DNA of 64,000 bases from a virus. Its lineage: Duplodnaviria; Caudoviricetes. Location: the IMG/VR virus record IMGVR_UViG_3300017903_002946, positions 1-64,000 of that record; one strand, given 5' to 3'. The notes beneath the pieces were generated by a model. It saw only the letters and a program-made list of their open reading frames with translations, had not been told where the DNA came from and searched no databases. Positions 31,741 to 62,466 of the stretch are shown in pieces; position 1 is the first letter of the stretch, and the number at the start of each line of letters is the position of its first letter. Made by a program: the position numbers and the translations under genes.

Positions 31741-32309
31741 TGATTCCAAATCAGCAGCACATTACTGCTTGTTTATTTTGTGTTAATTAACACAAACACA
31801 GCCATATATAGTATGTACCATAAAATATCGTAGATATACCCAAATATTTTGGGATACGAGTCGTTGTTTTTAGTAAGGCACAAAAAAACGCTCTATAGGT
31901 TCCTAAAAATGCTACAAAATTTTTGACACGTCTAATCCCTGTTGTACCCGCCTACCCGGTGGAACAAAAAAAATACACTGAAGTTTTACTTGTGATTTAC
32001 TTTTGTTCTAACAACAGATTCAAACTCAAGTTTCAATTCATAAGTTTACTTAAGTGTTTCCACATGTTAGTTGCTTATGTTGTAACAGTTGAGTTTCTAC
32101 ACAAGTTGCAATCGTCTAACTCAAGTCTTACTTTCGTTTAGATCAGATGTTGCAACGTATGTGTAATCATTGATGTCACATGTATCTTGCGCCTACTGCA
32201 TCACTGATGCGTAACGTATACGTGTAGTCATCAATCATCAATTCAATTGTAGAACACACTTCACGTCTATCGACGTGTTTAGTTAGTTGTGTTCTTTATA
32301 TATTTCACT

Positions 32310-32480
32310 ATGTTCAATCCTTATGTCACGCAGATTGCTGCTCAAACTGGCATGACTGAATACGAAGTGAACCGTGTTGCACGCAGGTCTCCAATCACAT
32401 TGGAATATGCACAATCACGTGGCTTCGATTCAGTTGCTGAGTACGAGGAAGCACTGCACGAGTTTCTCAACTCAAACTGA
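32310..32480 (+). CDS. Small early protein
   Basis: ATG 32310 after the first hairpin element; 56 aa. Confidence 0.65.
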   Translation: MFNPYVTQIAAQTGMTEYEVNRVARRSPITLEYAQSRGFDSVAEYEEALHEFLNSN

Positions 32481-32539
32481 ACACATGAGAGCCCGCCTAT
32501 CGGCGGGTTTAGTTCATTGTGCTCTTATTGCATAATCAC

Positions 32540-32665
32540 ATGCGTTTGCAAGTTTTGATTCAACAGCATCGTGCTCCTAGAACTAGGTTCACTGTGAAGA
32601 TCAATGATCAGCATCGTGCTTTTAATACTTTTGCTGAAGTGAAGGATTTCCTTCTGTCTCAGTAA
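32540..32665 (+). CDS. Small early protein (41 aa)
   Basis: MRLQVLIQQHRAPRTRFTVKINDQHRAFNTFAEVKDFLLSQ, lies between two hairpin elements. Confidence 0.55.
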   Translation: MRLQVLIQQHRAPRTRFTVKINDQHRAFNTFAEVKDFLLSQ

Positions 32666-32725
32666 TAAACACTGGAGCCCGTCTATCGACGGGTTTCATA
32701 CTCCGTGTTCTTTATATACCTTCCA

Positions 32726-32953
32726 ATGATTCCAGGTATGTGTCGTGTCTGGTTCCGTTTACGTGAACCTGACCCTTCCAATGAATGGAGCAACTGTTGG
32801 CAAGATATGCCATATGCTCCACGTAGTTACAACGATTGTGAAGACCTCGTTGATTACTACCAAAGTGAGTGGGGTAACTTATACAGCTATTGCATTCGCA
32901 GTGCTGCATGGGGTGCTTCCCCTTCACCAACTATGCCAGGTTGTCCTGGCTGA
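32726..32953 (+). CDS. Small early Trp/Cys/Tyr-rich protein
   Basis: ATG 32726; bounded by hairpin elements. Confidence 0.6.
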   Translation: MIPGMCRVWFRLREPDPSNEWSNCWQDMPYAPRSYNDCEDLVDYYQSEWGNLYSYCIRSAAWGASPSPTMPGCPG

Positions 32954-33016
32954 ACACACAAGGGCGTCAATCGACGCCTTTATTTGTTTGTGTTCTTTTG
33001 ATACTTAAGTATCTAC

Positions 33017-33340
33017 ATGCGTAAACTCGCTACTCTTACCAAGATGACTGCCAAAGGTCTGTCAACTTGGACATTCGCTCAGTGCGATGGTGTATATCTC
33101 GCATACGGTGGTATTACCAACCGTTGCCGAGTATTCCGCTCATACGCACAGCTTCAGGACTGCATGGTGAACTATGCATCCTATGGTTACGATTTGGAGC
33201 GTCACACGGCTAAACGCCGTTGGGACAAACCAACTCCAAAACCTGTAAAGAGTGTTGCTTCTATCCAGCAGGAACTTCCCCTGTATGAAGACACTCAAGC
33301 ACCACGTCCTGCTGAGGATACTGTGGTTGCTCTCTATTGA
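33017..33340 (+). CDS. Early hypothetical protein
   Basis: 107 aa, bounded by hairpin elements. Confidence 0.65.
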   Translation: MRKLATLTKMTAKGLSTWTFAQCDGVYLAYGGITNRCRVFRSYAQLQDCMVNYASYGYDLERHTAKRRWDKPTPKPVKSVASIQQELPLYEDTQAPRPAEDTVVALY

Positions 33341-33420
33341 ACATCTTGCGATACGGCGCTTATCAGCGCCTTTCTCGCTTTTTGCCCGATTAGGGCTTAT
33401 TCATTTATTCGTAATTACTT

Positions 33421-33669
33421 ATGCGTTTCAAAGTCCCTGGTCAAGATATCAACGTTCGCCTCTTCGAGCGCGTTGAGACTGTTGACAATCAGTACGACAT
33501 CTTTGATGTTGGCATTGAACAAGCAGATGGTTCTATCGACAGCATGGTTGTCGGTGGTTCCTTCTCTTATGCCAAGTCCCTTGTCAAAGCTATGGACACT
33601 AAGGCTGAAGAAGCTAAGGCTGCAAAAGCAGCTGAAGCTAATGAGCCTGAACTATCTGCAGTTGCTTGA
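33421..33669 (+). CDS. Early hypothetical protein
   Basis: 82 aa, followed by hairpin 33677. Confidence 0.65.
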   Translation: MRFKVPGQDINVRLFERVETVDNQYDIFDVGIEQADGSIDSMVVGGSFSYAKSLVKAMDTKAEEAKAAKAAEANEPELSAVA

Positions 33670-33707
33670 CGCCTATGCGCCCTATCGGGCGCTTTATTTT
33701 TCGTTTT

Positions 33708-34145
33708 CTATCTATAGAATGCAGGAACGTTTCCTGGCTTTACTCCTTCGAAAAAGTTAGGAAACTTAGCCTTACTGGCTTCCATGTTATAACCAGCGGG
33801 AGCTGGAATACCTCCTTGAACAGGTGGCATCATCCCACGTATTTGATTTTGTTCTACTTCATGAGTCATTCCATAGTCTCGTCTGGGATCGCCAGGAGCC
33901 AATTCATTTCCGTAAAGTCCAATAGGCTGGATCGTTGCATCATCTGCAACTCCAGGAATATCCATTTGAACCCTACGGTTCAAACCCTGTTTAGGACCTT
34001 CAAGTATTGGCATAAGAACATTGGCAGCAAGTTCTGGACCTTCAAGTATTGGCATACGAACATTGGCACCAAGTTCTGGACCTTGTCCACTTGTTCCTAA
34101 GTTATTGGCCATGTATGCCTGAAGGAAGTCGTTTGCTTGCATCAT
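33708..34145 (-). CDS. Late-type hypothetical protein with a 14-aa tandem repeat
   Basis: GPELxANVxMPILE twice (42-nt unit, 33994-34083); TACAAT box at 34165-34170; ATG 34145 preferred. Confidence 0.6.
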   Translation of the reverse strand: MMQANDFLQAYMANNLGTSGQGPELGANVRMPILEGPELAANVLMPILEGPKQGLNRRVQMDIPGVADDATIQPIGLYGNELAPGDPRRDYGMTHEVEQNQIRGMMPPVQGGIPAPAGYNMEASKAKFPNFFEGVKPGNVPAFYR

Positions 34146-34174
34146 TCTATATCGCAATATTTATATTGTATCTA

Positions 34175-34555
34175 TCACCTAAGTAAGATCTGTCCAGGCT
34201 CTTGTTGATCTGCTGGACCACCAAAGCTTGCGGCTAGATCTATTAGTCCTTTACCTGCGAGGGTTACACCTGCTGCGGGAAGGACGTACTTAGGCACAGC
34301 ATTAGCTGCAGGAAGTGCATACTCCATAGCATTCCGTGCTCCCCTCTGCATCTTTGTCTCAGGACCATAAACAAGATGCTCTACTTCACCTTTACGTAAG
34401 GACGGGTGTCCGCCTCCTGCTATTACAGCAGCAGTTCTTACAGCTGGATTACTACCCTCGTACATTTTGTTGATACGAGCGGTGTACGCATCGTCTACTC
34501 CACGAGCTCTTTCAAGTAATCCGCTTAAGAATTCACCGGCCTTACGTTTATCCAT
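34175..34555 (-). CDS. Late-type hypothetical protein (RKAGEF motif)
   Basis: 126 aa; TACAAT box at 34580-34585. Confidence 0.6.
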   Translation of the reverse strand: MDKRKAGEFLSGLLERARGVDDAYTARINKMYEGSNPAVRTAAVIAGGGHPSLRKGEVEHLVYGPETKMQRGARNAMEYALPAANAVPKYVLPAAGVTLAGKGLIDLAASFGGPADQQEPGQILLR

Positions 34556-34729
34556 AACTTACATTGTTTCTTTAACCACATTGTATCTACAATGGCGGGT
34601 TAAGAACTGGTAAAATTGAATTGATGCTATATACCTTTTATGGCAAATACCTACGTCATCTTTTTATCTATGTGGGCTATAGCCTCACTTGGATTGTTAT
34701 TCAAAGTATTGTATTTCTAACATAAACTT

Positions 34730-34882
34730 ATGACTAAAGCTCATAAATATACTCAACTGTTGCGAAAAGCTCAACTTGCGACTACTAGAGAAGATGCTAT
34801 CAAGATACTCGAAAAAGCTTGTAAATTAGAGCTTATTGAGAACGAATATCAATTAAATGCATTTCAGATAGCTTGTAAATAA
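34730..34882 (+). CDS. Small hypothetical protein (50 aa)
   Basis: MTKAHKYTQLLRKAQLATTREDAIKILEKACK... Confidence 0.45.
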   Translation: MTKAHKYTQLLRKAQLATTREDAIKILEKACKLELIENEYQLNAFQIACK

Positions 34883-34974
34883 TCGGCATTTACTACTACA
34901 TTTACCGTATATACCGATTGCTCTATTAGATACTTACTTAGTAAATTAATAGGGCCGGTATATATAAACGAGCA

Positions 34975-35208
34975 ATGAGCTTTTTAAATTTGTACGACAT
35001 TCAATCCTCATTTGATCCTTGGATTAGATATCAACGTCCATCTGTATATGTCATCTCTGACTCTCAATTGGCCGCTTATAAACGTGAACAAACACAGTCA
35101 GAAATTAACGAACTGAACAAGTTAATTGATAGCCATAAAGCTTCAATTGAACGATTGGAAGCACATGTTTCTGATTTGCAGAAACAACTTGAGCCAACTA
35201 AAGATTAA
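34975..35208 (+). CDS. Small coiled-coil protein
   Basis: 77 aa with heptad C-half; followed by hairpin 35215. Confidence 0.6.
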   Translation: MSFLNLYDIQSSFDPWIRYQRPSVYVISDSQLAAYKREQTQSEINELNKLIDSHKASIERLEAHVSDLQKQLEPTKD

Positions 35209-35264
35209 AGCAATGCCGCATAACTGCGGCTTTCTGAATATTTGAATTAATTCAGAAATCACAC

Positions 35265-35390
35265 ATGATTGTCTTTGATCAACAAACTATCATTCTGGCT
35301 ATCATCGGAATGATTGGTTTGCTTTCTACAGCCATCGTTTTATCTACTGCATTCAAGCGTAACCGTACTGGTTCCGGTAAATGGCAATAA
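35265..35390 (+). CDS. Small single-pass membrane peptide (41 aa)
   Basis: TIILAIIGMIGLLSTAIVLSTAF hydrophobic span followed by KRNR. Confidence 0.5.
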   Translation: MIVFDQQTIILAIIGMIGLLSTAIVLSTAFKRNRTGSGKWQ

Positions 35391-35503
35391 CACCTAACTG
35401 GCAAAAGCACAGCAAGAAAGAGGTTAAGTGCAAACTTAAACCTCAAGCTTTGCGTGCACGTAAGGCTGCATTGAAAGCATTTAAACGAAAGTATGCCGCT
35501 TAA
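35381..35503 (+). CDS. Small basic cyanophage protein (40 aa)
   Basis: MAITPNWQKHSKKEVKCKLKPQALRARKAALKAFKRKYAA; stop codon lies in the loop of hairpin 35495. Confidence 0.6.
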   Translation: MAITPNWQKHSKKEVKCKLKPQALRARKAALKAFKRKYAA

Positions 35504-35540
35504 CAGCGGCTTTTTTTGTATTGTCCTTTGACTAATAGTC

Positions 35541-35783
35541 ATGACTTTAATTTCCACCAAAGACATTCTTGCTGAGATGCCTTTGCCAAAAGCTATCGAA
35601 AAGAACGTGGATAGCGACTTTAAGTCTTTTCCTCCTGTTGATGACACTATTGTCTGGATCAAGCAGGTGGATTGGAATGAAGTTGGTATGCGCTGCAAAG
35701 GTGGCCTCAATAATGTGGGGCTTGTCCTTGCTGTGACTGGTGAAAAACTCTATGACTTTGGTTGTTGGTTAGCCAAAGTTTGA
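35541..35783 (+). CDS. Early hypothetical protein
   Basis: 80 aa between hairpins. Confidence 0.6.
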   Translation: MTLISTKDILAEMPLPKAIEKNVDSDFKSFPPVDDTIVWIKQVDWNEVGMRCKGGLNNVGLVLAVTGEKLYDFGCWLAKV

Positions 35784-35835
35784 AACTTTAGGCGCTTAAC
35801 AGCGCCTTTTCTTTCTTGTACTCTTTGAAGATTAC

Positions 35836-36354
35836 ATGAAAGGTATAGCTCAATCCCACTTTGTCGGTATTCAGCGTGTACAACCGCACAAGTCGCGGAT
35901 TGTGCATGCGTTTGACTTGGACGACACTATTACTCAAAAGCCTGATGGCTTTGATAACCGTGGTATGTCCAAAAATGATTTCTTTGATGCATCCAGAGCA
36001 TTCGGTCCTGATGACCGCATTGTGGATTTATTACGGATGATGCATCAATGGGGTGATTCAATTGCCATCTGTACGGCTCGTCCGTCCGATAGGCTTACTG
36101 AATCCTACAACTGGCTTCGCAAGTGGAACATCCCATTTGATGTCATCCTTGTGTCTACTGGCGTAGATAGCAGCGGTAATACAAAGCAGCACATGCTGAA
36201 GTATCTCCGCAAAAGCTATCGGATGGTGGGTACTCTCATTGATGACAGTCCCTACAACATAGAAGGCGCTCGCCTACAACGGATTAAACGCATCCATGTA
36301 CTCAAGAACTGCGAGTACTGGGATGCACATCCAGAAGTGGTGGTCAAGGTTTGA
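35836..36354 (+). CDS. HAD-superfamily phosphatase (PNKP phosphatase / nucleotidase-like)
   Basis: Motif I AFDLDDTI, motif II CTARP, motif IV LIDDSPYNI. Confidence 0.8.
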   Translation: MKGIAQSHFVGIQRVQPHKSRIVHAFDLDDTITQKPDGFDNRGMSKNDFFDASRAFGPDDRIVDLLRMMHQWGDSIAICTARPSDRLTESYNWLRKWNIPFDVILVSTGVDSSGNTKQHMLKYLRKSYRMVGTLIDDSPYNIEGARLQRIKRIHVLKNCEYWDAHPEVVVKV

Positions 36355-36468
36355 TGAAGCTACTTCTCTATATATTCCTTGCTCTCTACTTCAATGCAGA
36401 TGCAAGATCTATCGGCTTATGCCTTCTACCACCTTTGTCTAGTACAGAGACAACTGATATTTGCTTTG

Positions 36469-36648
36469 ATGAGCAATAGCCGCCGATTGGCGGCTTTAGT
36501 TTCTTGTGTCCAGTACATGATCACAATGACAGACCTTCAAGTACGTGCAGCAAAGCGCACTCGCGAAGAGTATCTCCGTCAAACCAAAGAGATGATGAGA
36601 GATCTTCTTTACCTTCGTAAAGCAGGTAAAACAGCCGTGATTGGTTGA
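36469..36648 (+). CDS. Small hypothetical protein
   Basis: C-terminal part of track ORF 36379-36648; true start uncertain (36469 or later). Confidence 0.45.
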   Translation: MSNSRRLAALVSCVQYMITMTDLQVRAAKRTREEYLRQTKEMMRDLLYLRKAGKTAVIG

Positions 36649-36708
36649 AAACACACAAGGGCGCTTAACTGCGCCTTTCTTTTTTAATGTTCTTTTTCTG
36701 AATGCTTA

Positions 36709-36918
36709 ATGGCAATCACCTATGACTTCCAGATTGTTGCTAGCAACATTCCAGGACTTAAGAAGGTGGTTCCTCAGAACGAAGATGCGTTCTGCTATCT
36801 CGTAGATGAAACCGAATACACCATCTTCTCAGATGGTTCTACCGCTCTATTTAACGAGCGTATTGATGACTTCATCTCCGATGCAGGCCACGCACATATG
36901 TGCTGCAATATCGCTTGA
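36709..36918 (+). CDS. Small early protein
   Basis: 69 aa between hairpins 36660 and 36932. Confidence 0.6.
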   Translation: MAITYDFQIVASNIPGLKKVVPQNEDAFCYLVDETEYTIFSDGSTALFNERIDDFISDAGHAHMCCNIA

Positions 36919-36977
36919 GTTAACCACTTTTCCCGCTTAGCAGCGGGTTTCGTTCTTTTTGTAAATTCGAGATCTAT

Positions 36978-37355
36978 ATGACTCAATCATTCAACATTCC
37001 CGACAGCATCTCACCGGAGGTGCTTCAAAAGCACCTTAAAAATGCAGTAGTCGATGAACCTATCAATGATTTGCCTGAAGATCTTTTTGATCAAGCAGAG
37101 CATTGGGTACAGCAAGCTTCATCCAACTCGGACAACCCCATGATTGTCCATAAGTTGATGATTATTGCTATCGTCGATCGCATGATTCAGTTCCACGAAG
37201 GTATTGCTGAACGTATGGATGAAAAGGGTGATGGGAGACAAGCTGGAGTTTGGCTCAAAGATGCTGGTAAGTTCCAGGCCATTATGAACATTCTTCAGAC
37301 GATCGAATGTGGCCCTGATGACCCTATTTGTACTTCTTGTAGTGGTCACCACTAA
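36978..37355 (+). CDS. Early hypothetical protein
   Basis: 125 aa, Cys/His-rich C-terminus. Confidence 0.6.
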   Translation: MTQSFNIPDSISPEVLQKHLKNAVVDEPINDLPEDLFDQAEHWVQQASSNSDNPMIVHKLMIIAIVDRMIQFHEGIAERMDEKGDGRQAGVWLKDAGKFQAIMNILQTIECGPDDPICTSCSGHH

Positions 37356-37412
37356 ACACTTTGCCGCTTAACAGCGGCTTTCTTTTTTTATGTTCTTTAT
37401 CAAAGTTTCACT

Positions 37413-37895
37413 TTGACTAACACTCAAACTCGCTACGCTCAGTTCAACGCTCTCACCGTCACTGGACGTATTTTCAACGCTGAGATCGTGACGCAAGCTG
37501 ACGGCAGCCAGTTTTTGGCTGTATCCGTTATCAGCACTGCTACCACTGATGGCGCAGACTTGGTGTATAACTTCACCAACAACAACGGCCTTATGGGCCT
37601 TCACGAGAAGGGCTATTTCGGTAAGGGCCGTCAGGTGACTATCACTGGTCACATCAAAAATGTCAGTGAGGTCTACACCGACAAGTCTGGCCAAGTGCGT
37701 ATGCGCAAGCGTCCCGAGATCAGCCTCATTGGAGTGACTGTTCTTGACGGTGGCCTTGGACCTATGCCTAAAGTTGAGAACAACGTACGTTCTGTTGCAG
37801 GCTCTGTTGTCACTCAAGTTGGCACTCCTGCTATTGATGACACTCCTGACTACAGTTCAGAGGCAGAGCAACAGGAAGAGGTTGCTCTTTATTGA
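37413..37895 (+). CDS. OB-fold single-stranded DNA-binding protein-like
   Basis: LTVTGRI...GRQVTITGHI...Y.DKSG pattern and acidic tail; strong codon bias. Confidence 0.55.
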   Translation: MTNTQTRYAQFNALTVTGRIFNAEIVTQADGSQFLAVSVISTATTDGADLVYNFTNNNGLMGLHEKGYFGKGRQVTITGHIKNVSEVYTDKSGQVRMRKRPEISLIGVTVLDGGLGPMPKVENNVRSVAGSVVTQVGTPAIDDTPDYSSEAEQQEEVALY

Positions 37896-37992
37896 ATAAA
37901 TTCCTGGCCGTGTATCCCACGGCTGGGATTTTTCTTTTTTCAAACTATAAACATTAATCAGAACCACGCAGCAGGATTATAAGTAGCAAGCT

Positions 37993-39078: not shown

Positions 39079-39198
39079 TCATATACATACCTATGTTTAT
39101 TTAATTCGCATAAGTATCAACATCTACTATTTGATTGTATAAACTTTTGGGACGCTAATTAGCGTCTCTCGTTATTAACGTCCTTTCAACTATTTCTT

Positions 39199-39426
39199 AT
39201 GGACACGCAAATGGTTTTGATTGCTAAATCACAAGTTGAACAACTTCTTGTGCAACTTCAACGAGCAGAAGGATATTGTTTGAAGGCTCGTCCTGTTAGT
39301 TTTCCTATGTCTCGTGAAGATTTATTTGCAGAACCAACTGAGTTTTACTCAGGTGCATCTGGATATGCTCGGTCTACAATGCGTCAGGTAATTGACACTC
39401 TTGAATCACATCTTCAAGATGTTTGA
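39199..39426 (+). CDS. Small hypothetical protein
   Basis: 75 aa after a GACGCT-AATT-AGCGTC hairpin (39151-39166). Confidence 0.55.
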   Translation: MDTQMVLIAKSQVEQLLVQLQRAEGYCLKARPVSFPMSREDLFAEPTEFYSGASGYARSTMRQVIDTLESHLQDV

Positions 39427-39430
39427 GCTA

Positions 39431-39545
39431 GGGTAATTACAGGCAGGAAGAAGAACGACGTCACTGCCTACCCGATCGGGTTACAGGCATTTTTGTCGTT
39501 TCTGTCTGTGTAATTGAAAAGGCTGCCTCGTGGTGGCCTTTCCCC
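39431..39545 (+). ncRNA. Candidate structured RNA upstream of tRNA-Leu
   Basis: Nested pairings AATTAC/GTAATT, AGGCAG/CTGTCT, AACGAC/GTCGTT, TGCCT/AGGCA, ACCC/GGGT plus a second AAAGGC/GCCTTT hairpin. Confidence 0.45.
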
Positions 39546-39550
39546 CAAAT

Positions 39551-39634: not shown

Positions 39635-39673
39635 TTATTTAGTTAAAGTAATTATGTTGAAAGAAATATATAT

Positions 39674-40028: not shown

Positions 40029-40030
40029 TT

Positions 40031-40103: not shown

Positions 40104-40149
40104 TATGTATGTTCTATGTACAATTGATAAAGAATCAATTTATCAATAA

Positions 40150-40734
40150 ATGTCTTATCATCAATCTGATCACTATAACCCACGTTTTGGTTTTGGTAGA
40201 CTTGGACGTGTAAATAAAGATGATTTTAGTATTGACGGAAAATCTTGGGAATATCGAAATCCTACAAACTATAATGATGATGATGACGGATGGTCTAACT
40301 ATAACTACAAATACAATAACAATGCCAGTGCAGTAACAAATCCTTTATACGACTATGATTATGGAACTGTTCGAGATGCTGCAAAAAAACTTGGCATTGG
40401 CAACGTTGATGAAAAAGCAGAAGTAGATCAATTACTAAAATATATTCAAGAAGGACCTGAAAAAGAGACCAAAGTTAAACAATCTAAAAAAGATAAAAAT
40501 AAGCCAAAAGCGCAAGAATTTAAAGACGAATACGTAGATAAAATAATTAAAGAAACTAAACCTGAATTAAGCCAAACTGTTGGTGACGTGACAGGTGGAG
40601 ATAACAGTATTGTTTCTCCTATAAATCAAGCAAATCCTATTTCAATTAAAGGAGATAGCAATACTGTCTCACAAGATAGCTCTATTAAGCAAATGATGGA
40701 CAATTTGACGCAATCCTTACGGTTAGCTTATTAA
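40150..40734 (+). CDS. Late-type hypothetical protein, paralogue of 18398-19345
   Basis: GDVTGGDNSIVSPINQANPISIKGDSNTVSQDSSI; TACAAT box at 40119-40124. Confidence 0.6.
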   Translation: MSYHQSDHYNPRFGFGRLGRVNKDDFSIDGKSWEYRNPTNYNDDDDGWSNYNYKYNNNASAVTNPLYDYDYGTVRDAAKKLGIGNVDEKAEVDQLLKYIQEGPEKETKVKQSKKDKNKPKAQEFKDEYVDKIIKETKPELSQTVGDVTGGDNSIVSPINQANPISIKGDSNTVSQDSSIKQMMDNLTQSLRLAY

Positions 40735-41240: not shown

Positions 41241-41259
41241 GCCGCTTACCAGCGGCTTT
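41241..41259 (+). repeat. TANC-loop hairpin upstream of DUF932 gene
   Basis: GCCGCT-TACC-AGCGGC-TTT. Confidence 0.8.
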
Positions 41260-43118: not shown

Positions 43119-44204
43119 ATGGCAACTAGCATCATTTCGGGTGCCCAGTCCCGCAAAACAAACTGGGAATATTTTTGTGAATGGGTCACTAGTACAAACA
43201 ATCGCCTCTATGTAGGTTGGTTTGGCGTACTAATGATTCCTACTCTTCTCGCAGCAACTATTTGTTTTATTACTGCGTTTGTAGCAGCACCACCTGTCGA
43301 TATTGATGGAATTCGTGAACCTGTAGCTGGATCTCTGCTTTATGGAAACAACATTATCTCCGGTGCCGTTGTACCATCCAGCAATGCAATCGGCTTACAC
43401 TTTTATCCGATCTGGGAAGCAGCAACACTCGACGAGTGGCTGTATAACGGGGGACCTTTCCAACTCACGGTCTTTCACTTCCTTATCGGTATCTACGCTT
43501 ACTTGGGACGAGAGTGGGAACTTAGTTACCGACTAGGAATGCGTCCTTGGATTTTCGTAGCATACAGCGCACCTGTTGCTGCAGCTTCTGCTGTTTTTCT
43601 TGTATATCCATTTGGCCAAGGATCTTTCTCTGATGCAATGCCCCTCGGCATCTCCGGAACATTCAACTATATGTTTGTCTTCCAGGCTGAACACAATATC
43701 CTCATGCATCCCTTCCATATGCTCGGCGTTGCTGGGGTATTTGGTGGCAGTTTGTTTAGTGCTATGCACGGAAGTCTGGTTACTTCTTCTCTTATTAGAG
43801 AAACGACTGAAGAAGTGAGCCAAAACTATGGCTATAAGTTTGGCCAAGAGGAAGAGACCTACAACATCGTGGCTGCCCATGGTTACTTTGGTCGCTTGAT
43901 CTTCCAATACGCCTCCTTCAACAACAGCCGTAGCCTCCACTTCTTCTTGGCTGCCTGGCCTGTTATTGGCATTTGGTTTACCGCCTTGGGAGTGTCAACC
44001 ATGGCCTTTAACTTGAACGGTTTCAACTTTAATCAGTCTATTCAATCATCTAAAGGACATGTTATTGATACATGGGCTGATATTTTGAATCGTGCAAGCC
44101 TTGGCATGGAAGTAATGCATGAGCGAAATGCTCATAACTTCCCTCTTGATCTTGCTACTGCAGATATTACTCCTGTTGCGCTAATTGCACCATCTATTGG
44201 TTAA
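43119..44204 (+). CDS. psbA: Photosystem II reaction centre protein D1
   Basis: [20 protein letters not shown] ... [13 protein letters not shown]; intronless; REWE (Glu130) type. Confidence 0.99.
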
Positions 44205-46974: not shown

Positions 46975-46996
46975 ATAGCCGCCAAAAGGCGGCTAT
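46975..46996. terminator. Probable terminator after the basic protein
   Basis: ATAGCCGCC-AAAA-GGCGGCTAT. Confidence 0.65.
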
Positions 46997-47040
46997 ATTT
47001 ATGTCATGGGTTAATCGCCCATGTTTTAAATTTGCAACGA

Positions 47041-47382: not shown

Positions 47383-47401
47383 GCCGCTTAACAGCGGCTT
47401 T
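47383..47401 (+). repeat. TANC-loop hairpin
   Basis: GCCGCT-TAAC-AGCGGC-TTT, identical to 35495 and 37363. Confidence 0.85.
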
Positions 47402-54678: not shown

Positions 54679-54714
54679 CCTTTAATATAAAGACTGAAAA
54701 ACTAAACAGTCATA

Positions 54715-55374: not shown

Positions 55375-55418
55375 ACGTAAGATTCACCTAGCTCGAAATC
55401 TTTCGGGCTGGGATTATC

Positions 55419-55880: not shown

Positions 55881-55943
55881 AATACATAACCTCACATTTT
55901 AATATTGTACAACTTATAGTTGTTATGTCTTAGATATTTAGAT

Positions 55944-56681
55944 ATGACACTGCAAGTTTTACCACCTGAATTACTCGAACAAAGTCAAGAAAAAATTGAA
56001 ACTAAAGAACCTCAACCTTATTGGAAACCAAGCAGTCTTAAAGATGGAGAAAGCGAAGAATTTCGACTTCTGGGCTGTTATGAAACAGGTCATGCAATCA
56101 TGGGTTGGCAGTACGCTTCCGAAGCAGCAGGTCCAGACGGTGAACTCAAATTCAATGGGTACATTGTTACTCGCACTCACCCTGGTACTCCTAGCGATCT
56201 TGCTCGTGAAACTGACTGGTCCAAACCAGATCGACCAAAAATTGATGGCTCCTACGTCAAACCACGTAGGTTTTTAGCTTGGGTAGGTACATCAGCTACT
56301 CGTGGTCGTCTTGAAGTACTGTTTATTGAACAAAAATCTTTACGCGATCAACTTACTGAAATTCTGCAAGAAGTTGAAGATTACACATGGACTGAAGATG
56401 GCCTTGCTAATTTTTCGATTAAGATCTCTCGTAAGGGAGCTGGTTTGGAAACTTCATACAGCATCTTACCGAAGGTGCGAAAAGTTCCACAGAAAATTGT
56501 TGATCAATGGGCATCTAACAAAGATTCAATCTGGCTTCCTAACTTCTTTGAAGGGAAAGATCCTTTTGATGGAAAGCAAGTTGACCAAAAAGGTTTACCT
56601 GCTGGTGGAATAGACAAACGAGGCAGCACTGTGCTTACTACAAAAGCTGCTAAAAATAACGAACCTGAAACTGAATTTTAA
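55944..56681 (+). CDS. Probable gp32-like ssDNA-binding protein
   Basis: KPSSLKDGESEEFRLLG ... IKISRKGAGLETSYSILP; acidic tail; precedes the exonuclease. Confidence 0.5.
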   Translation: MTLQVLPPELLEQSQEKIETKEPQPYWKPSSLKDGESEEFRLLGCYETGHAIMGWQYASEAAGPDGELKFNGYIVTRTHPGTPSDLARETDWSKPDRPKIDGSYVKPRRFLAWVGTSATRGRLEVLFIEQKSLRDQLTEILQEVEDYTWTEDGLANFSIKISRKGAGLETSYSILPKVRKVPQKIVDQWASNKDSIWLPNFFEGKDPFDGKQVDQKGLPAGGIDKRGSTVLTTKAAKNNEPETEF

Positions 56682-56983
56682 TGACTAACTCACTTCAAAA
56701 TTTGCCTCCTGAAATGCAAGAGCGCATTAATCAACTTATTACAGGAGCTAAAACTGCTCAAGCACCTGCTCCTATTACACGACCGCCTTCGCTAATGGAT
56801 CATACTATTGCACTTCGCCAGGAAGTTGCACAGTTGTCTAATCAAGTAGTAGCGATGGGTCAAGTAATGGAGGGTGTAGGTCAACTAGTTGGAGAGCTAT
56901 ACCAACTTTTTCAGACGCAAACCGCAACTACAGATTACAGCTCAACTTATCAAGAGAACCAGGAACTAGAGAGTGACTACTGA
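56681..56983 (+). CDS. Coiled-coil hypothetical protein
   Basis: 100 aa with heptads. Confidence 0.55.
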   Translation: MTNSLQNLPPEMQERINQLITGAKTAQAPAPITRPPSLMDHTIALRQEVAQLSNQVVAMGQVMEGVGQLVGELYQLFQTQTATTDYSSTYQENQELESDY

Positions 56984-57743
56984 TAAACCTTATAGAATTC
57001 AAACTTCTGCCGGACATAGAAAATATCTATGCTCCGGCATTTATATGCCAAGTGTAACCACTGTATTATCTGCCACTGAATCAGAAAAATCTAAAGCAGG
57101 TTTACGTACATGGCAAAAGAATAATCCGGGTGCGCTAGAGGAGGCATCTACTCGCGGCTCTGCTATTCATCTTGGTTGTGAAAACTATATTCGTGGATTG
57201 GATCCCAATATTCCTGATGAATTTCAAGAATTTTGGAATGGTATTTCGACATACCTAGATTGGTTTGATACAATTCATTGGTCAGAGCGTCCTTTACGTC
57301 CTGATTGGAATCACCTTAGAAGTGATGACAAAGAAGTTGCTTACGTTTGGAGTACAGAACATCGATATGCTGGTTGTCCAGATTTAATCGGTGAAATTGG
57401 CGGTGTACGAGTTATTGCTGATTTTAAAACAAGCAATACTCCTTACTGCTCAACTTTTCCTGAACGTGGTGACCGTATGGGTTTTGGCGGTTATCGCAAA
57501 TATACTAAGTGTGCTCAACAAATGGCTGCTTATCGGTATGCCTTAAATGAGCGGACAGGGTTTCTTTGTGATGTTGCCCTTATCATTGTTTCTACACCGG
57601 AAACAACACAAGGAATATTTATTGATGGAGATCAACTAGCTCTTCACGAATCGCGTTTTTTAAAACGTTGTCAACAATTTCATGAGATAGATAATGAAAC
57701 TAAGGATTGCAGTCAACAAGAATTGCAAGAACAAACTAACTAA
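56973..57743 (+). CDS. PD-(D/E)XK (Cas4/RecB-like) exonuclease
   Basis: PSVTTVL, RGSAIH, YAGCPDLIG, IADFKTS, QMAAY. Confidence 0.88.
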   Translation: MTTDKPYRIQTSAGHRKYLCSGIYMPSVTTVLSATESEKSKAGLRTWQKNNPGALEEASTRGSAIHLGCENYIRGLDPNIPDEFQEFWNGISTYLDWFDTIHWSERPLRPDWNHLRSDDKEVAYVWSTEHRYAGCPDLIGEIGGVRVIADFKTSNTPYCSTFPERGDRMGFGGYRKYTKCAQQMAAYRYALNERTGFLCDVALIIVSTPETTQGIFIDGDQLALHESRFLKRCQQFHEIDNETKDCSQQELQEQTN

Positions 57744-59916
57744 ACCTGCACATGATTGGCAAAATATTAACGAAGATATTGAATGGTTACTTGGTTGGGT
57801 TCAGCAAGGTTATGGCTGGTGCGCAACTCATTTTCATAACAGGCATCGTAAATCTGATAATTCAGTAGGTTCAAATGTCATTGTTATTGATTTTGATGGA
57901 GATACTTCGCTTGCACGTTTTTGGTCAACTGACACTGCTCGACATTGGTGTGCTGCTACTTATACGTCTGCAAGCCACAGTGAACAAGAACATCGGTTTC
58001 GAGCTCTTTTTCCACTAGCTCGATTGCTTAATAGCTCTGCAGAACATCGTGGTGCCTACTGGCTTATTGTTAATCGATTACTTGCTGAGTTAGAGCTTGA
58101 AGGGCTCGCTGACAATTGCGGTCAAAAACCTGAACGGCTTTGGTTTGGAAATTCAAATACTGAAATTCAATCAAATAAAGAATGTGAACCTGTACCTGAG
58201 TTCTTGCTAGAAGATATTGCTTATGAAGAAGCCTCAAACTTTAATAGTTCAGACATTACTGATATAGATATTAAACGCTGTCAGTGGCTTCTAGAATCCT
58301 TTTTACGCCCTTCTGAAGATGGTGAGTATGAAACCTATTATGTGCCTGTCATGGCTGCTTGTGCAGGCATTGGTGAACCTATGTTCGATTCATGGGTTAC
58401 ATGGGTATTAAATGGCCATCACGGAGAAAAGCAAGAAAATATTCAACCATTTAAGTGGCGAGGTCTCGGTAATTATTCAGGTCATACTACACTTTATTCG
58501 CTTGCTAAAAAGCAAGATCCAGATTGGGCTAAAAAACTTCCTGTTAATCTAAGATTTGGTGCTCTTGGAGCTGCCGGAGGTTATACCGAGTTTGATCCTA
58601 TTCATAACTTTGATAAGTACATAAATACAATGGAATTAAGCGCACAACAAAATGACATTGACATCGAACCAATTCCTGATTCACAGCAAGTAAAACGTAG
58701 AGGGCGTCCAAAAAAATCATCTGATGATCTTGCAAAAGAACGTGAAAGCGATGTTACTAAGGTAAAAGATATTCTTCACGATTTACGTAAAAATGAACTA
58801 ACAAGTGCAATTGAGTACACTGACAACCAAGGTCAAACTATTGCTTTGCAAGGTAACGACCTTGATCTAATGACTGTTAAAGTTGCATGTGAAAATGGTA
58901 TTTTTATTCCAGAAGCACGTATTAAAAGCGCGATTCAATATGCAGCATCTAAAAATTTATACTGCCCAATCAAAAAGTATCTAGAGAAGTGTGCTGCAAC
59001 TTGTGCACCACATACTGATTGGAATCGTGTAGGAAAAATATTTCTTGGCAACAGTTATGCAATTGCTACAACTGCAATGCAACGCATGATGATTGGTGCT
59101 GTAGCACGTGCATTTAATCCTGGATGTTCTATGTCTTGGCTTCCGATTTTAGTAGGTCCTCAAGGAGCTGGTAAATCTATGTTTGCTCGGTGCCTTGTAC
59201 CCCAAAACCTTTTTTCAGAAATTACTACACCACTAGAAACTCTGATGAAAGAGCAATATCGATTGCATGTTGCATGGCTTTTAGAGCTTCCTGAAATTGA
59301 TAACTATTTTAATTCACGTAACATTGAAAACTTTAAAAATCTTGTTACTACAAGAGTAGATGAAGTTAGATTTCCTTATGCATCTTTACCAAGCAAATTG
59401 GCTCGTAGGTTTGTTCTGATTGGAACGACTAATAGAAATCAATTTTTGGTTGATAGTACTGGCAATAGACGCTTTGTACCACTTGAAATTGGTCCTAACT
59501 TTCAAATCCCTTGGAAGGAGCTTAATATTCAACGAGATTATCTTTGGTCAGCAGCTGTTCACGCATATAGAAATGGAGAAGGTTACGAATTTAATAGTGG
59601 CGAAATTGCTGCTATTGCTGATTACATCCAAGAGTTTGGTGATCCAGATCCTTGGCTTGACAAAGTTGCATCTTATGTAGCTATTCGTGATGAAGTAAGT
59701 GCTGCGGAAGTTTTAACTAACGCACTAGAGCTTGATCCTCGCAGTCAAGGCAGAAGAGAAGGACGAAGAGTTGCAGATATTCTCCAGTCAATGGGATGGA
59801 GACGTCTTGTCACTTCACGAAAAGATCCACTTACAAACAAATCAAAATCTGTTCGTATTTGGCAGCGTCCTAGCAATGATCCTCTTATTGAAGATCACAT
59901 ATTGAACGACTTTTAA
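57694..59916 (+). CDS. Primase (AEP-like + PriCT) fused to VirE/VapE-type SF3 helicase
   Basis: IVIDFDG, YTSASH, RFRALFPL; Walker A GPQGAGKS, Walker B LELPE, GTTN, DSTGNRRF. Confidence 0.88.
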   Translation: MKLRIAVNKNCKNKLTKPAHDWQNINEDIEWLLGWVQQGYGWCATHFHNRHRKSDNSVGSNVIVIDFDGDTSLARFWSTDTARHWCAATYTSASHSEQEHRFRALFPLARLLNSSAEHRGAYWLIVNRLLAELELEGLADNCGQKPERLWFGNSNTEIQSNKECEPVPEFLLEDIAYEEASNFNSSDITDIDIKRCQWLLESFLRPSEDGEYETYYVPVMAACAGIGEPMFDSWVTWVLNGHHGEKQENIQPFKWRGLGNYSGHTTLYSLAKKQDPDWAKKLPVNLRFGALGAAGGYTEFDPIHNFDKYINTMELSAQQNDIDIEPIPDSQQVKRRGRPKKSSDDLAKERESDVTKVKDILHDLRKNELTSAIEYTDNQGQTIALQGNDLDLMTVKVACENGIFIPEARIKSAIQYAASKNLYCPIKKYLEKCAATCAPHTDWNRVGKIFLGNSYAIATTAMQRMMIGAVARAFNPGCSMSWLPILVGPQGAGKSMFARCLVPQNLFSEITTPLETLMKEQYRLHVAWLLELPEIDNYFNSRNIENFKNLVTTRVDEVRFPYASLPSKLARRFVLIGTTNRNQFLVDSTGNRRFVPLEIGPNFQIPWKELNIQRDYLWSAAVHAYRNGEGYEFNSGEIAAIADYIQEFGDPDPWLDKVASYVAIRDEVSAAEVLTNALELDPRSQGRREGRRVADILQSMGWRRLVTSRKDPLTNKSKSVRIWQRPSNDPLIEDHILNDF

Positions 59917-59955
59917 TTACACTAAAGTTACTAAAACATATATTATTCAGATACA

Positions 59956-60192
59956 ATGAAAGCCAAAGATATTAAAATCGGACAACGTGTTGTTACTTCT
60001 CCAGGAGAACGTATTGCACTTGTAGTTGGTAAACCTGAATTTTATACTCCACGTGCCCAACTCGTAAGAATTAAGTACGAAAATAGCACTCGTTACGAGT
60101 ATAAAATGAATCATCAGCTAGAGCTTCTTCCTATTGAACAACAATATGAAGTACATGGTGGTCATCATATTAAACCTGATAGTGATTTTTGA
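59956..60192 (+). CDS. Small SH3/KOW-like hypothetical protein
   Basis: 78 aa, IKIGQRVV...ALVVG...VRIKY beta pattern. Confidence 0.5.
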   Translation: MKAKDIKIGQRVVTSPGERIALVVGKPEFYTPRAQLVRIKYENSTRYEYKMNHQLELLPIEQQYEVHGGHHIKPDSDF

Positions 60193-60986
60193 TGTCTGAA
60201 TCAACTCCTAATCGTAAAGTTGGTGGTCATGCTTACGGTAGACGCAACTTAAACCTTTCAAATACTGCAGAAGAAGGAACATTATGTATTTACAGCGGCC
60301 ATTCTATTGGCCGTTTTAGTGCTACTTCAATGCGTTTTGATAGTCATCAAGCGTGTGTTCGATGTGTGGCTGCAGCAAGAGAAGGTAGAATGTCTTTTGA
60401 CATTAATCGACTGCTTAAGAAAGAACGCAAACGTGCTCTTAAGTTTTGGTCTAAAGTTGATATTGATCAACCTGACGAATGCTGGGAGTGGCAGGGTTAT
60501 AAAGCTCCTGGCAATGGAATGCCGCAGTTTCCTTGGAGACGGCCTGGAATTAGCAGTAGCACTCAACATCATCCTCAGCGCGTAGCTATGTGGTATACGT
60601 GGGGAGATCTTGGTTATACCGGTGTAAAAACTACTTGCGGTAATAAATATTGCTGCAATCCATTTCATTTAATTCCTCAAAAAATTGGTGTTTTTGTTGA
60701 TCAAGATTCTTATCTTGAAAGCTTTGAACTTGCCTGTGAACTGCATACACTTAAGCAGCAAGTAGCTGAATATGCTGTTGAACAAGCTTTAAAAGAGCAA
60801 GAAATGATTACTAATGCTCAAGAACTTGACGACCGTGCAAATCTAACGTTTGCTCCAAATTCTGAATTTGCTGACCGTTGGGAAGCAGTTGTAGAAGATA
60901 TTATTAATGGTAGACACTCTAGTCAATTCAATTCGTCTCAACTAAATAGTGAGGATGAAGAAAATAATACCACAAATAATGAATAA
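60192..60986 (+). CDS. HNH-endonuclease-derived protein, apparently catalytically degenerate
   Basis: FWSKVD...ECWEWQG...CGNKYCCNPFHL scaffold; VKTTC replaces VxHxC. Confidence 0.7.
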   Translation: MSESTPNRKVGGHAYGRRNLNLSNTAEEGTLCIYSGHSIGRFSATSMRFDSHQACVRCVAAAREGRMSFDINRLLKKERKRALKFWSKVDIDQPDECWEWQGYKAPGNGMPQFPWRRPGISSSTQHHPQRVAMWYTWGDLGYTGVKTTCGNKYCCNPFHLIPQKIGVFVDQDSYLESFELACELHTLKQQVAEYAVEQALKEQEMITNAQELDDRANLTFAPNSEFADRWEAVVEDIINGRHSSQFNSSQLNSEDEENNTTNNE

Positions 60987-61018
60987 TTAATTTATCCTAA
61001 ATAGAGAGTCATTCTATT

Positions 61019-61438
61019 ATGTCTAGACGCAACGATCTGATTCAGCAATTAATTGCTTCAGAAAAATTTGGTCCTGAAAAAGAACAAGAGCAGAAGTTTC
61101 TCATGGCTACTGCAGAATTGATCCTTTCAGATCTTATTAATATTGCTCTTAACGGCGTAGAAAAGCATGGTCCAGGTTCACTTGTGATTAACTTATTGAA
61201 TGATTCAACTACTTTCATGTGGGCAGAATCAATTGAAATTGATCTTCAAATTTCTGAACGTGAAAACGATACAGATGTGAACGAGTTTTTACGAAAACTT
61301 TTACAGGAGATTAATGAAAATGATTGGTCGCAAAACGTGCTTATTACATTAATTAGTGATGCTGGAACAAGAACATTTGCAGTCGAAGCAGGTCGGAGCC
61401 AAGAAAGCTTTAGAGCGCTCGCAGAAGAATTTATCTGA
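61019..61438 (+). CDS. Hypothetical protein
   Basis: 139-aa ORF in the replication cluster. Confidence 0.6.
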   Translation: MSRRNDLIQQLIASEKFGPEKEQEQKFLMATAELILSDLINIALNGVEKHGPGSLVINLLNDSTTFMWAESIEIDLQISERENDTDVNEFLRKLLQEINENDWSQNVLITLISDAGTRTFAVEAGRSQESFRALAEEFI

Positions 61439-62027
61439 TAAACTTGCTTCTAAAGGTTTAAAGCTTCCTCTCTATCCAACGCCTCAACTCATTGATAGAG
61501 CAAGGCAAGTCATGGGTAGCATTGACTTTGACCCAACATCTGATCCTGTGCAGCAAGTACTTGTTGAAGCTACTTCAGTTCCTACTATTGATGTTAATCC
61601 ACTTCAAGAACATTGGCATGGTAACGTTTGGATTGCACCTAAAGGTGCTGTAAAAAACTGCCGTATTTGGCTAAACAAAACTATTAATGAATATCGCAAT
61701 GGTCATATTAATAGTTTTATTTTTTTTAGTAGTGCTTCTGAATTACTACGTGCTGCACCAATTGTGTGGGATTATCCCATTTGTATTCCTTTCAAAAGAG
61801 TTAAACAACTCCGAGCAACGTCAACAGGATTTGAATCTGTATGTCCATCTACATGGAATTTAATTGTCTATGGTCCTCCTATTCATCAAGCATTAACTGA
61901 TATTGATAAAGTTTCTTTGTTTTATAACAACTTTAGAGATATTGGTCGTGTTATTTATAGCGAATATGCAGGTGATGGGTGGCAAAAGGATCTTGAGTAT
62001 TACGAAGAAAATAAAGGTAATATCTAA
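61356..62027 (+). CDS. DNA N6-adenine methyltransferase-like protein lacking the NPPY motif
   Basis: YPTPQLIDRARQVMGSIDFDPTS...WHGNVWIAPKG...WLNKTINEY; start uncertain. Confidence 0.7.
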   Translation: MMLEQEHLQSKQVGAKKALERSQKNLSDKLASKGLKLPLYPTPQLIDRARQVMGSIDFDPTSDPVQQVLVEATSVPTIDVNPLQEHWHGNVWIAPKGAVKNCRIWLNKTINEYRNGHINSFIFFSSASELLRAAPIVWDYPICIPFKRVKQLRATSTGFESVCPSTWNLIVYGPPIHQALTDIDKVSLFYNNFRDIGRVIYSEYAGDGWQKDLEYYEENKGNI

Positions 62028-62440
62028 TGAGTAAACATATTGCTCAAGATTATTTTTATGTGCTTCCTTCCGAGAGCAAAGTCCATCCTTGCCGTCTCAT
62101 TACAAAAGATGGAACTTTAATGTGGAAGCACGCTTTGCTTTATCAAAACTCTCAATTATTTTTACCCATTTCTGAGGCTCACGAACAACACATAATAAAA
62201 ACTGCTCAGCGCTTAGAAGAGCTGAACAGTTGGGTGTCACAAGGACTTGAGCCTTGGGAATGTTTTTCAATTAAAGCGTGGTATCAACCTAACGAATCTG
62301 AGTTATCTGAAGGTATCTCTGCTTACTTCACTCATACAACTCATGACCTTACTTTTACTTATACAAACTTATTGCCACACATCCAAGATCATGAGAATTT
62401 TGAACTACGTGACAAATATCTATTCTTTCGTCGCTGTTGA
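62027..62440 (+). CDS. Hypothetical protein
   Basis: 137 aa, followed by hairpin 62448. Confidence 0.55.
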   Translation: MSKHIAQDYFYVLPSESKVHPCRLITKDGTLMWKHALLYQNSQLFLPISEAHEQHIIKTAQRLEELNSWVSQGLEPWECFSIKAWYQPNESELSEGISAYFTHTTHDLTFTYTNLLPHIQDHENFELRDKYLFFRRC

Positions 62441-62447
62441 CAACAAG

Positions 62448-62466
62448 GCCGCATATCTGCGGCTTT
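62448..62466 (+). repeat. TANC-loop hairpin between convergent genes
   Basis: GCCGCA-TATC-TGCGGC-TTT. Confidence 0.8.

Follow-up and report, generated by a model that had tools for sequence, protein, structure and literature searches.

The phage and its early genes

We describe here a family of small hairpins that recurs between the plus-strand genes of the IMG/VR virus record IMGVR_UViG_3300017903_002946, together with a conserved sequence box that follows most of them. The record is 80,569 bp long with a 141-nt terminal overlap, and the window analysed is its first 64 kb (64,000 nucleotides). The hairpins are densest in an early block of 5.6 kb, between 32.26 and 37.9 kb, where 13 copies are interspersed among 14 small open reading frames (ORFs). 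Elsewhere the plus strand carries psbA (43119-44204) and genes for ribonucleotide reductase and a primase-helicase, with three tRNA genes at 39.5-40.1 kb, and the structural genes are on the minus strand. Among isolated phages no close DNA relatives were found, and a related structural protein was found only in the polar Synechococcus phage S-EIV1 (49% amino-acid identity); the phage is a member of the S-EIV1-like marine cyanophage lineage and is not T4-like. Family matches were obtained for just three of 20 searched proteins of the plus-strand region, 14 of them encoded inside the early block, and nearly all of these proteins are ORFans. The text of the paper on the S-EIV1-like uncultured marine lineage (Flores-Uribe et al., 10.1101/325100) names no hairpin, terminator, promoter or intergenic element.

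The same hairpin family is present in seven related IMG/VR contigs, with up to 14 copies in 12.6 kb. The closest relative used for comparisons is L015 (~86% identity), with L010 and L007 more distant. A search for related loci with a 160-aa early protein returned the three closest contigs only, and an IMG/VR motif scan with a TTT-N9-box pattern gave unrelated chance matches, with no new relatives among the matches listed. In one 106-kb contig (IMGVR_UViG_3300050343_000255, loci L016 and L019) the early region is present twice in nearly identical form, so that this contig may be a concatemer or may combine two strains in one assembly.

A strand-specific family of covarying hairpins

On the plus strand of the 80.6-kb genome 15 hairpins, and on the minus strand none, have a perfect 6-bp stem with four or more G/C, a 4-nt loop and a following TTT, compared with a chance expectation for both strands together of 0.09 on average and 1 at most in 200 dinucleotide-preserving shuffles. 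A covariance model (CM) trained on 65 non-identical copies from this phage and the seven related contigs identifies 17 members in the whole genome, all on the plus strand (Table 1), including one (39137-39190) that was outside the training set; the single minus-strand match is the mirror image of one palindromic copy, and the minus-strand late genes contain almost none of these hairpins. All fifteen hairpins listed in an earlier sequence-only reading of this DNA were recovered, each followed by TTT, and those at 36479 and 39151 are additions to that list. In S-EIV1, which contains no hairpins of this kind, the CM has no match, nor has it any in the 400 kb covered of a host-like marine Synechococcus genome, and no Rfam family was found across the region.

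The stems covary extensively, as had been proposed from the sequence. All six pairs show two-sided changes (70 cells), with a covariation score of 0.574 compared with 0.130 for shuffled alignments and at most 0.07 for slid controls; the percentage of paired positions is high by construction of the set, which is not true of the two-sided changes. Compensated substitutions are also seen at orthologous positions, such as the three pairs by which CCCGCT/AGCGGG of hairpin 12 differs from its L007 orthologue GGCGCA-AATT-TGCGCC, or GCCGCT in place of GGCGCT or GTCGCT, and the orthologues of hairpin 17 are GCCGCT-TAAC. Overall, stem identity between orthologues is 80-97% with the changes compensated, and each 6-bp stem has a predicted energy of -7 to -12 kcal/mol.

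The loop is less constrained than the fixed TANC first described. Among the 65 copies TAAC (28), TATC (14) and TAGC (6) are the most common, and AATC, TACC, GACT, AATT, TATT, GATT, TAAT, AAAC and AACT also occur; the A at position 2 alone is invariant, and T1 and C4 are kept in about 85% of copies, so that T-A-N-C is a bias only. Within orthologue groups the loops drift (TAGC/TAAC/AAAC/AATT in one, GATT/GACT/AATC/AACT in another), and their identity between orthologues, 79-88%, is near that of the surrounding DNA. UAAC belongs to the UNAC class of tetraloops, which adopt a GNRA-like fold with a U-C pair between positions 1 and 4 (PMC5311481); such a fold would account for the preference for U1 and C4 but leaves the invariant A2 unaccounted for.

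The TTT that follows the stem is present in all 65 training copies, but the next position is T in only four (non-T in 61/65). Terminator-like sites in the host-like Synechococcus genome differ: T is present at +4 in 38 of 65 cases, the T-runs are long, and both stem length (5-11 bp) and loop vary, with no TANC tetraloop among them. Nonetheless, the commonest hairpin of the family, GCCGCT-TAAC-AGCGGC, also occurs with a long T-run as a single site in several unrelated phages with different portal and terminase families, indicating that the hairpin as such is an ordinary terminator-type hairpin. This, together with the drift of the loops at about the background rate, undoes the earlier argument that the conserved loop sets the hairpins apart from plain terminators.

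Two of these unrelated occurrences are of some interest in their own right. In one phage group (L008, L009, L011, L012, L020, L028, L029, L030 and L032) the identical hairpin is followed by TTTTTTGTGCGCTATACT, and the whole looks like a terminator joined to a -10-like TATACT. In another phage, likewise unrelated to that of the window, a bidirectional copy lies at the end of a 3217-codon minus-strand ORF (L018:2487-12140), the size of an N4-like virion RNA polymerase.

A start-codon box in fixed phase with the hairpin

Alignment of the copies shows that the hairpin is one part of a cassette of ~55 nt with the order stop codon, 6-14 nt, 6-bp stem with a U-A-N-C-type loop, UUU, eight pyrimidine-rich nucleotides, NUG-YYC-UUU, 16-25 nt and the main start codon. 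In 11 copies the stem begins 6-14 nt past the stop codon of the upstream gene, and in 12 the next ATG is 29-38 nt beyond the stem, so that the context of stop, hairpin and ATG described previously is borne out for most of the family; two copies, at 33677 and 62448, have no plus-strand gene downstream. Both keep the hairpin and TTT at convergent gene ends but lack the box, and are presumably terminator-only copies.

The box, NTG-YYC-TTT, occupies +12 to +20, exactly 11 nt past the stem and without any insertion or deletion between copies. Its first triplet (+12 to +14) is GTG in 27 copies, ATG in 11 and TTG in 11, such that 49 of the 65 have a start codon there (one more has CTG), and if a shift of one or two bases is allowed a start codon is found in 55 of the 60 copies that precede a plus-strand gene. 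It is the best conserved segment of the cassette, 94% conserved between orthologues that are ~75% identical overall, compared with 59% and 49% for its flanks. Start codons interchange between orthologues, with ATG/GTG at 36660 and TTG/ATG at 33355 and 35495. Away from the hairpins, the box is found at most as scattered single matches, mostly weak. The degenerate member at 39151 retains GTCCTTTCA at the same phase and has a gene downstream at 39199.

The reading frame opened by the NTG bears a recurrent relationship to the gene that follows. At 32262, 32492, 32678 and 47383 it is fused to the gene. Elsewhere it forms a mini-ORF (1-10 codons) and stops either across the main start, as ATGA (the 35791 and 36479 groups) or TTGA (the 37363 group), an arrangement kept across relatives that are ~75% identical, or 4-15 nt ahead of it. 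The frames at 33355 and 41241, a minority, stop at a greater distance from that start or overlap the gene in another frame. A Shine-Dalgarno sequence (GGAG- or GAGG-like) is present in no copy, and complementarity of the box to host 16S rRNA is not consistently above that of shuffled sequences.

Some cassettes have additional pairing potential. In one subfamily cTGAACAC contains the upstream stop codon, and GAACAC within it is complementary to GTGTTC in the box, the two occurring together in 11 of 12 cases, and the first four cassettes can be folded into a longer, irregular two-helix hairpin with an asymmetric internal loop. A different flanking helix at hairpin 5 (33355), GCGA/UCGC, is replaced in L007 by AGAG/CUCU, a compensated change suggesting that the element acts in single-stranded form, most simply as RNA. 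At 37363, a second hairpin around the TTG start shows a change of U-A to G-C in the comparison of relatives.

A weaker copy of the box (TATGTTCTATGTA, position weight matrix score 10.8) is located at 40105-40150, directly after the 3' end of the tRNA-Met gene and before the gene at 40150; here the tRNA may stand in for the hairpin.

Table 1. Members of the hairpin family and the terminator of the first early block. Box and start-codon positions refer to the window.
Feature	Position	Strand	Stem-loop-stem	Box, start codons and context
Hairpin 1	32262-32277	+	CACGTC-TATC-GACGTG	TTT; box GTG-TTC-TTT 32289-32297, in frame with ATG 32310
Hairpin 2	32492-32507	+	CCCGCC-TATC-GGCGGG	Stop codon 11 nt upstream; GTG box 32519 in frame with ATG 32540
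Hairpin 3	32678-32693	+	CCCGTC-TATC-GACGGG	GTG box 32705 in frame with ATG 32726
Hairpin 4	32963-32978	+	GGCGTC-AATC-GACGCC	Box GTG-TTC-TTT-TGA, a 3-codon mini-ORF; main ATG 33017
Hairpin 5	33355-33370	+	GGCGCT-TATC-AGCGCC	Box TTG-CCC-GAT-TAG, a mini-ORF
Hairpin 6	33677-33692	+	GCGCCC-TATC-GGGCGC	No downstream box; probable convergent junction
Hairpin 7	35215-35230	+	GCCGCA-TAAC-TGCGGC	Gene-replacement breakpoint relative to L015 and L010 at 35233
Hairpin 8	35495-35510	+	GCCGCT-TAAC-AGCGGC	Mini-ORF TTG-TCC-TTT-GAC-TAA ends 5 nt before ATG 35541
Hairpin 9	35791-35806	+	GGCGCT-TAAC-AGCGCC	7-codon mini-ORF; stop overlaps main start 35836 (ATGA)
Hairpin 10	36479-36494	+	GCCGCC-GATT-GGCGGC	Absent from first list; stop of GTG mini-ORF overlaps in-frame ATG (ATGA)
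Hairpin 11	36660-36675	+	GGCGCT-TAAC-TGCGCC	T.T closing mismatch; box ATG-TTC-TTT-TTC-TGA, a mini-ORF; orthologues have GTG
Hairpin 12	36932-36947	+	CCCGCT-TAGC-AGCGGG	Box TTG-TAA, start codon followed directly by stop
Hairpin 13	37363-37378	+	GCCGCT-TAAC-AGCGGC	8-codon ATG mini-ORF; stop overlaps main TTG 37413 (TTGA); kept in six relatives
Terminator, strong canonical	37902-37928	+	11-bp stem, loop TATCC	-17.8 kcal/mol; tail TTTTTCTTTT; closes first early block
Member 14, degenerate	39151-39166	+	GACGCT-AATT-AGCGTC	No TTT; no start codon in box; CM E=4e-4
Hairpin 15	41241-41256	+	GCCGCT-TACC-AGCGGC	Orthologues GGCGCT (L015) and GTCGCT-TAGC (L007), all compensated
Hairpin 16	47383-47398	+	GCCGCT-TAAC-AGCGGC	Box ATG 47410 opens a 228-codon ORF
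Hairpin 17	62448-62463	+	GCCGCA-TATC-TGCGGC	No box; ends plus-strand block, facing minus-strand ORF 62468-62755

Gene exchange at the cassettes and comparison with PeSLs

Comparison with L015 shows that the cassettes coincide with places where the early genes of close relatives differ. Seven of 12 homology breakpoints lie within 25 nt of a hairpin (16% expected; P=0.001), including those at +22 after 32262, +19 after 32492, 10 nt before 32678, +17 after 33677, +3 after 35215 and 2 nt before 35791. Between these breaks L015 has a deletion, an additional gene with its hairpin, another gene in place of the one here, or a different segment of two genes.

These features strongly recall the promoter-early stem-loops (PeSLs) of the T4-type phages RB49/phi1, T4/PST and KVP40/nt-1 (Arbiol 2010, PMC2839356; Comeau 2014, PMC4122927). 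In both systems repeated composite units occupy the short gaps between small early ORFan genes, the upstream stop codon is closely followed by a stem-loop and then by the signals for expressing the next gene, and the units are the seams at which single genes are gained, lost or replaced between close relatives. The description of the hairpins as a possible undescribed early-expression system was therefore overstated, since apart from the missing promoter the architecture and gene swapping match the published PeSL concept. There are nonetheless clear differences. The hairpin is uniform (6 bp, tetraloop and TTT), the start-codon box is at a fixed 11-nt phase, the hairpin-to-ATG distance is only ~32 nt, and the phage is S-EIV1-like rather than T4-like. 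Moreover, the cassette has neither a sigma-70-like -35/-10 pair nor a Shine-Dalgarno sequence, and thus works like a PeSL but without these two defining features.

The cassettes could yet be true PeSLs, each consisting of a terminator and its own early promoter and acting as an independent unit, with TTT(A/C) as a T4-like -35 element, the box within the promoter, and mRNAs that are leaderless or nearly so. In keeping with this, the architecture and gene exchange are those of PeSLs, there is strong conservation of the box and of its phase relative to the hairpin, the first cassette lies ahead of the first gene without an upstream ORF, and the phage's own sigma-70-family factor might read a non-standard promoter. 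However, the 29-38 nt between hairpin and ATG leave little space, and at no phase is there a conserved hexamer that has A at -11 and T at -7; the segment that would hold the -10 element of a leaderless message (+21 to +32) is the least conserved, at 49%. The box-to-ATG distance is variable at 16-25 nt, which does not fit leaderless starts, and away from the hairpins the box has at most scattered, mostly weak matches. A consensus scan for sigma-70-type promoters gave 30 hits compared with 39.5 expected, none of them placed between hairpin and ATG, in agreement with the earlier observation that there is no such promoter there. We consider true PeSLs unlikely. A leaderless -10 element was sought specifically and rejected, since no TAnnnT is conserved at a constant spacing from the ATG.

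The exchange of single genes also raises the question of whether the hairpins are DNA recombination sites, recognised by a recombinase in the manner of integron attC sites and serving to move single-gene cassettes. Single-gene insertions and replacements are bounded by the units, and the flanks contain the inverted repeats GAACAC/GTGTTC. But the stems are perfect, with no extrahelical bases and no R/L core-site pattern, and their sequence varies freely with compensation, so that a recombinase would have no sequence to recognise. Their constant placement relative to stop and start codons argues for a role in gene expression, and homologous recombination in the ~40-nt conserved patch would suffice to explain the exchanges, as proposed for PeSLs. 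A dedicated recombination site is thus highly improbable, and we rejected the attC reading on account of the perfect stems and absent core sites.

Possible roles in termination, read-through and RNA processing

The hairpins are oriented with transcription and lie just past stop codons, as do intrinsic terminators, which they also resemble in being G+C-rich stem-loops followed by U's. Intercistronic C(UUCG)G hairpins of phage T4, reportedly described by Tuerk in 1988, are a further parallel in that T4 also reuses one tetraloop, and the family's commonest hairpin serves elsewhere as a lone terminator-like site. The present hairpins differ from intrinsic terminators in the interruption of the U-tract at +4, in their short stems of constant length, in the conserved, phased box that follows, and in the presence of thirteen copies inside one block that has to be read through. 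No internal promoters were recognised in this 14-gene block, and it is closed by a strong canonical terminator at 37902. The view that the hairpins are not efficient stand-alone terminators therefore holds up well, given the 6-bp stems, the interrupted U-tract, the number of copies in one block and the strong terminator at its end. We infer that hairpin and TTT provide weak, leaky termination or attenuation together with protection of 3' ends.

Metatranscriptome contigs from relatives that are 85-99% identical bridge the hairpins at 35215, 35495, 35791, 36660, 36932 and 37363, and one contig of 1303 nt spans three hairpins. These are assembled contigs covering small shares of the region, and their ends and the uncovered parts are uninformative as to RNA ends. 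The bridging contigs are no more than compatible with read-through, as carry-over of DNA is possible.

A related interpretation is that the cassettes are RNA processing sites, in which the hairpin and its flanking helices are cut by RNase III, or the U-rich tract on the 3' side by RNase E, to give monocistronic mRNAs with protective hairpins as in T7. RNase III sites in the early mRNA of T7 and T3 (R0.3 to R1.3) are similarly hairpins between early cistrons that leave the upstream message with a 3' hairpin, and here too a subset can form two helices with an asymmetric internal loop. Four cassettes fold into the longer irregular hairpin noted above, other loci have flanking helices of their own, one of which is compensated, and an A/U-rich single-stranded tract follows every stem. 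In contrast to the T7 and T3 sites, however, the lower helix is short, unproven and missing from most copies, and the outer helix shows no covariation within its 14-sequence subfamily. RNase III substrates usually comprise about two helical turns, and the combined helices here are shorter than that. Processing at the cassettes thus appears distinctly unlikely, although an RNA-level role of some kind, whether attenuation, processing or protection, fits the data as the sequence-only reading had anticipated.

Two further proposals of that reading, antitermination sites and DNA hairpin promoters, fare less well. In our version of the first, Nus factors or a phage factor would be loaded on the elongating polymerase by a boxB-like hairpin and a boxA-like box (or at a hairpin-stabilised pause 13 nt past the stem, with U at -1 and G at +1), bringing about antitermination or programmed pausing along the early operon. 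The lambda nut and rrn boxB-boxA sites (PMC5725501, PMC2724277) also combine a hairpin with a short U-rich box, and the order of hairpin followed by box is that of rrn leaders and spacers, including those of the host. The box consensus GTTCTTTA corresponds to the GYTCTTTA core of the gamma-proteobacterial boxA consensus GYTCTTTAANA (PMC5725501), the first copy lies in a leader as nut sites do, the loop bias U-A-N-C includes the UNAC-class UAAC with its U-C 1-4 pair (PMC5311481), and the geometry of 6-bp stem, 4-nt loop and 11-nt spacer is uniform, unlike that of host terminators.

The comparison with boxA weakens on closer inspection. In the rrn operons of Synechococcus MIT S9451 and RCC307 the host boxA of the spacer is GAACCTTGACAA and that of the leader is GAACCTGGACAA or a sequence close to it, and most phage copies differ from these at 7-8 of 12 positions; we therefore rejected the box as a match to host boxA. 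Only 12 of the 65 copies match GYTCTTTA. No N-like or Nus-like protein was recognised among the searched early ORFs, nearly all of which are ORFans, with arginine-rich motifs not searched systematically. The loop is not GNRA-like and drifts between orthologues, and the copies are far more numerous than nut or rrn sites, fifteen reloading sites being without known precedent. To our knowledge cyanobacteria lack Rho, in which case the main target of boxA complexes is gone. Literature searches for a cyanobacterial Box-A string and for cyanophage early promoters yielded nothing usable. Overall, a signal of this type is quite improbable.

In the second, the hairpins would be N4-type promoters, extruded on the template strand with a GNTA loop and read by a phage or virion RNA polymerase. 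The promoters of the N4 virion RNA polymerase have a 5-7-bp stem and a 3-nt loop with a central purine on the template strand, and d(GNNA) loops are stable. The hairpins described here are likewise small, with a preferred loop, and lie upstream of early genes as a strand-specific family. However, the loops here have four nucleotides rather than three, the end bases A and G of GNTA are less conserved than its middle T, which is the invariant template-strand base, and two of the 17 copies are at the 3' ends of gene blocks with no following gene. A search for a T7/N4-like RNA polymerase gene (PF00940) gave no match, in a search whose control matched in no control genome. The largest ORF is of 1231 aa, the two largest carry SPRY and DUF7483 domains and are tail-fibre-like, and two large proteins without assigned function beside the early block gave no lead in the ESM Atlas and no sign of a polymerase. 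With no phage RNA polymerase gene found, N4-type hairpin promoters are not supported, and we regard them as highly improbable.

A proposed portable intercistronic cassette

The interpretation that we favour, with moderate confidence, is that the repeated unit is a portable intercistronic RNA cassette, in which a hairpin that terminates leakily or protects 3' ends is joined to a site where ribosomes enter independently of a Shine-Dalgarno sequence. The hairpin and its short interrupted U-tract would act as a weak intrinsic terminator or attenuator and shield the 3' end of the upstream cistron. Most polymerases would pass the hairpins, in which case the 14-gene block would be transcribed as one polycistronic early mRNA with stepwise attenuation, ending at 37902. 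A ribosome close to a terminator hairpin interferes with its formation, and a terminating ribosome at a stop codon 6-14 nt from the stem would further suppress the hairpin.

The U-rich spacer and the NUG 11 nt past the stem would then constitute the ribosome entry site, at which the NUG would open either the gene itself or a mini-ORF of 1-10 codons that ends across or just before the real start, allowing termination and reinitiation to be coupled. In the first cassettes the GUG may pair with the GAACAC directly after the upstream stop, and translation of the upstream gene would unmask it. The cassette would double as a patch of homology for the insertion, deletion and replacement of single early genes, as PeSLs do.

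Several observations weigh against this interpretation. The first cassette has a complete hairpin yet no upstream gene to terminate; with no ORF before it, hairpin 1 is in the leader of the early block. The codon after the NTG varies non-synonymously (F, L, S or P) while its third-position C (+17) and the TTT are kept, such that the box looks like a nucleotide motif and not a peptide, and in three orthologue groups (5 copies) the box is kept without a start codon, having ACG, CTG or GCG instead. Fused and overlapping mini-ORFs are partly expected from the geometry, with the main ATG ~20 nt away. The five pairs of the outer helix GAACA/UGUUC are invariant in the 14-sequence subfamily and so provide no covariation, and the enrichment of breakpoints at hairpins is not significant relative to the more distant L010 and L007, where the test is without power. 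Lastly, we infer each of termination, read-through and ribosome entry. The GAACAC/GUGUUC form of the outer helix was set aside as a proven structure, its arms occurring together without covarying, and is offered as an idea only.

A bolder interpretation, speculative and fairly unlikely but accommodating the same features, is that the hairpin with its U-A-N-C loop and the phased box together form one cis-acting signal, for which the host or the phage supplies a dedicated factor. The signal might be a nut-like loading site that renders the polymerase resistant to termination or makes it pause, or a hairpin-guided loader of ribosomes that couples the early genes without Shine-Dalgarno sequences, in either case making the block a promoter-less array tuned by reiterated RNA signals.

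Other features of the region

The early block is preceded by a 680-bp non-coding divergent region (31581-32261) between the late and early gene blocks, which is 88% conserved with L015, and which probably contains the early and late promoters and perhaps an origin. Its sole sigma-70-like match is TTAACA-N16-TAGTAT at 31787-31814. Amid the minus-strand structural genes lies a gene for a complete sigma-70-family factor of 315 aa, with regions 1.2, 2, 3 and 4 (13481-14428, minus strand).

Within the block, the sole protein with matches to families of known function is the HAD-like product of 35836-36354 (plus strand), which matches polynucleotide kinase/phosphatase and phosphoheptose isomerase PHROGs (phrog_415, 4.6e-15). 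The gene at 36978-37355 has a variable internal segment at 37045-37250, where a metatranscriptome contig of run X3 has 207 different nucleotides in place of 204, and where L007 also diverges. Farther downstream, the gene for an Arg/Lys-repeat protein is followed by a bidirectional terminator-like hairpin at 46975-46996, ATAGCCGCC-AAAA-GGCGGCTAT (-15.7 and -17.3 kcal/mol), and by a second hairpin at 47005-47023.

Implications for S-EIV1-like phages

The cassettes provide a testable model for how marine relatives of S-EIV1 may express early ORFans without recognisable promoters or Shine-Dalgarno sequences, and the same model would cover the grading of dosage along the operon and the exchange of single genes between relatives. 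They extend the idea behind PeSLs, that portable expression linkers are also recombination seams, beyond the T4-like phages, with the portable part here seemingly a terminator and a translation start rather than a terminator and a promoter. If it works as proposed, so small a unit would also be useful as an insulator or ribosome-entry part for the engineering of Synechococcus.

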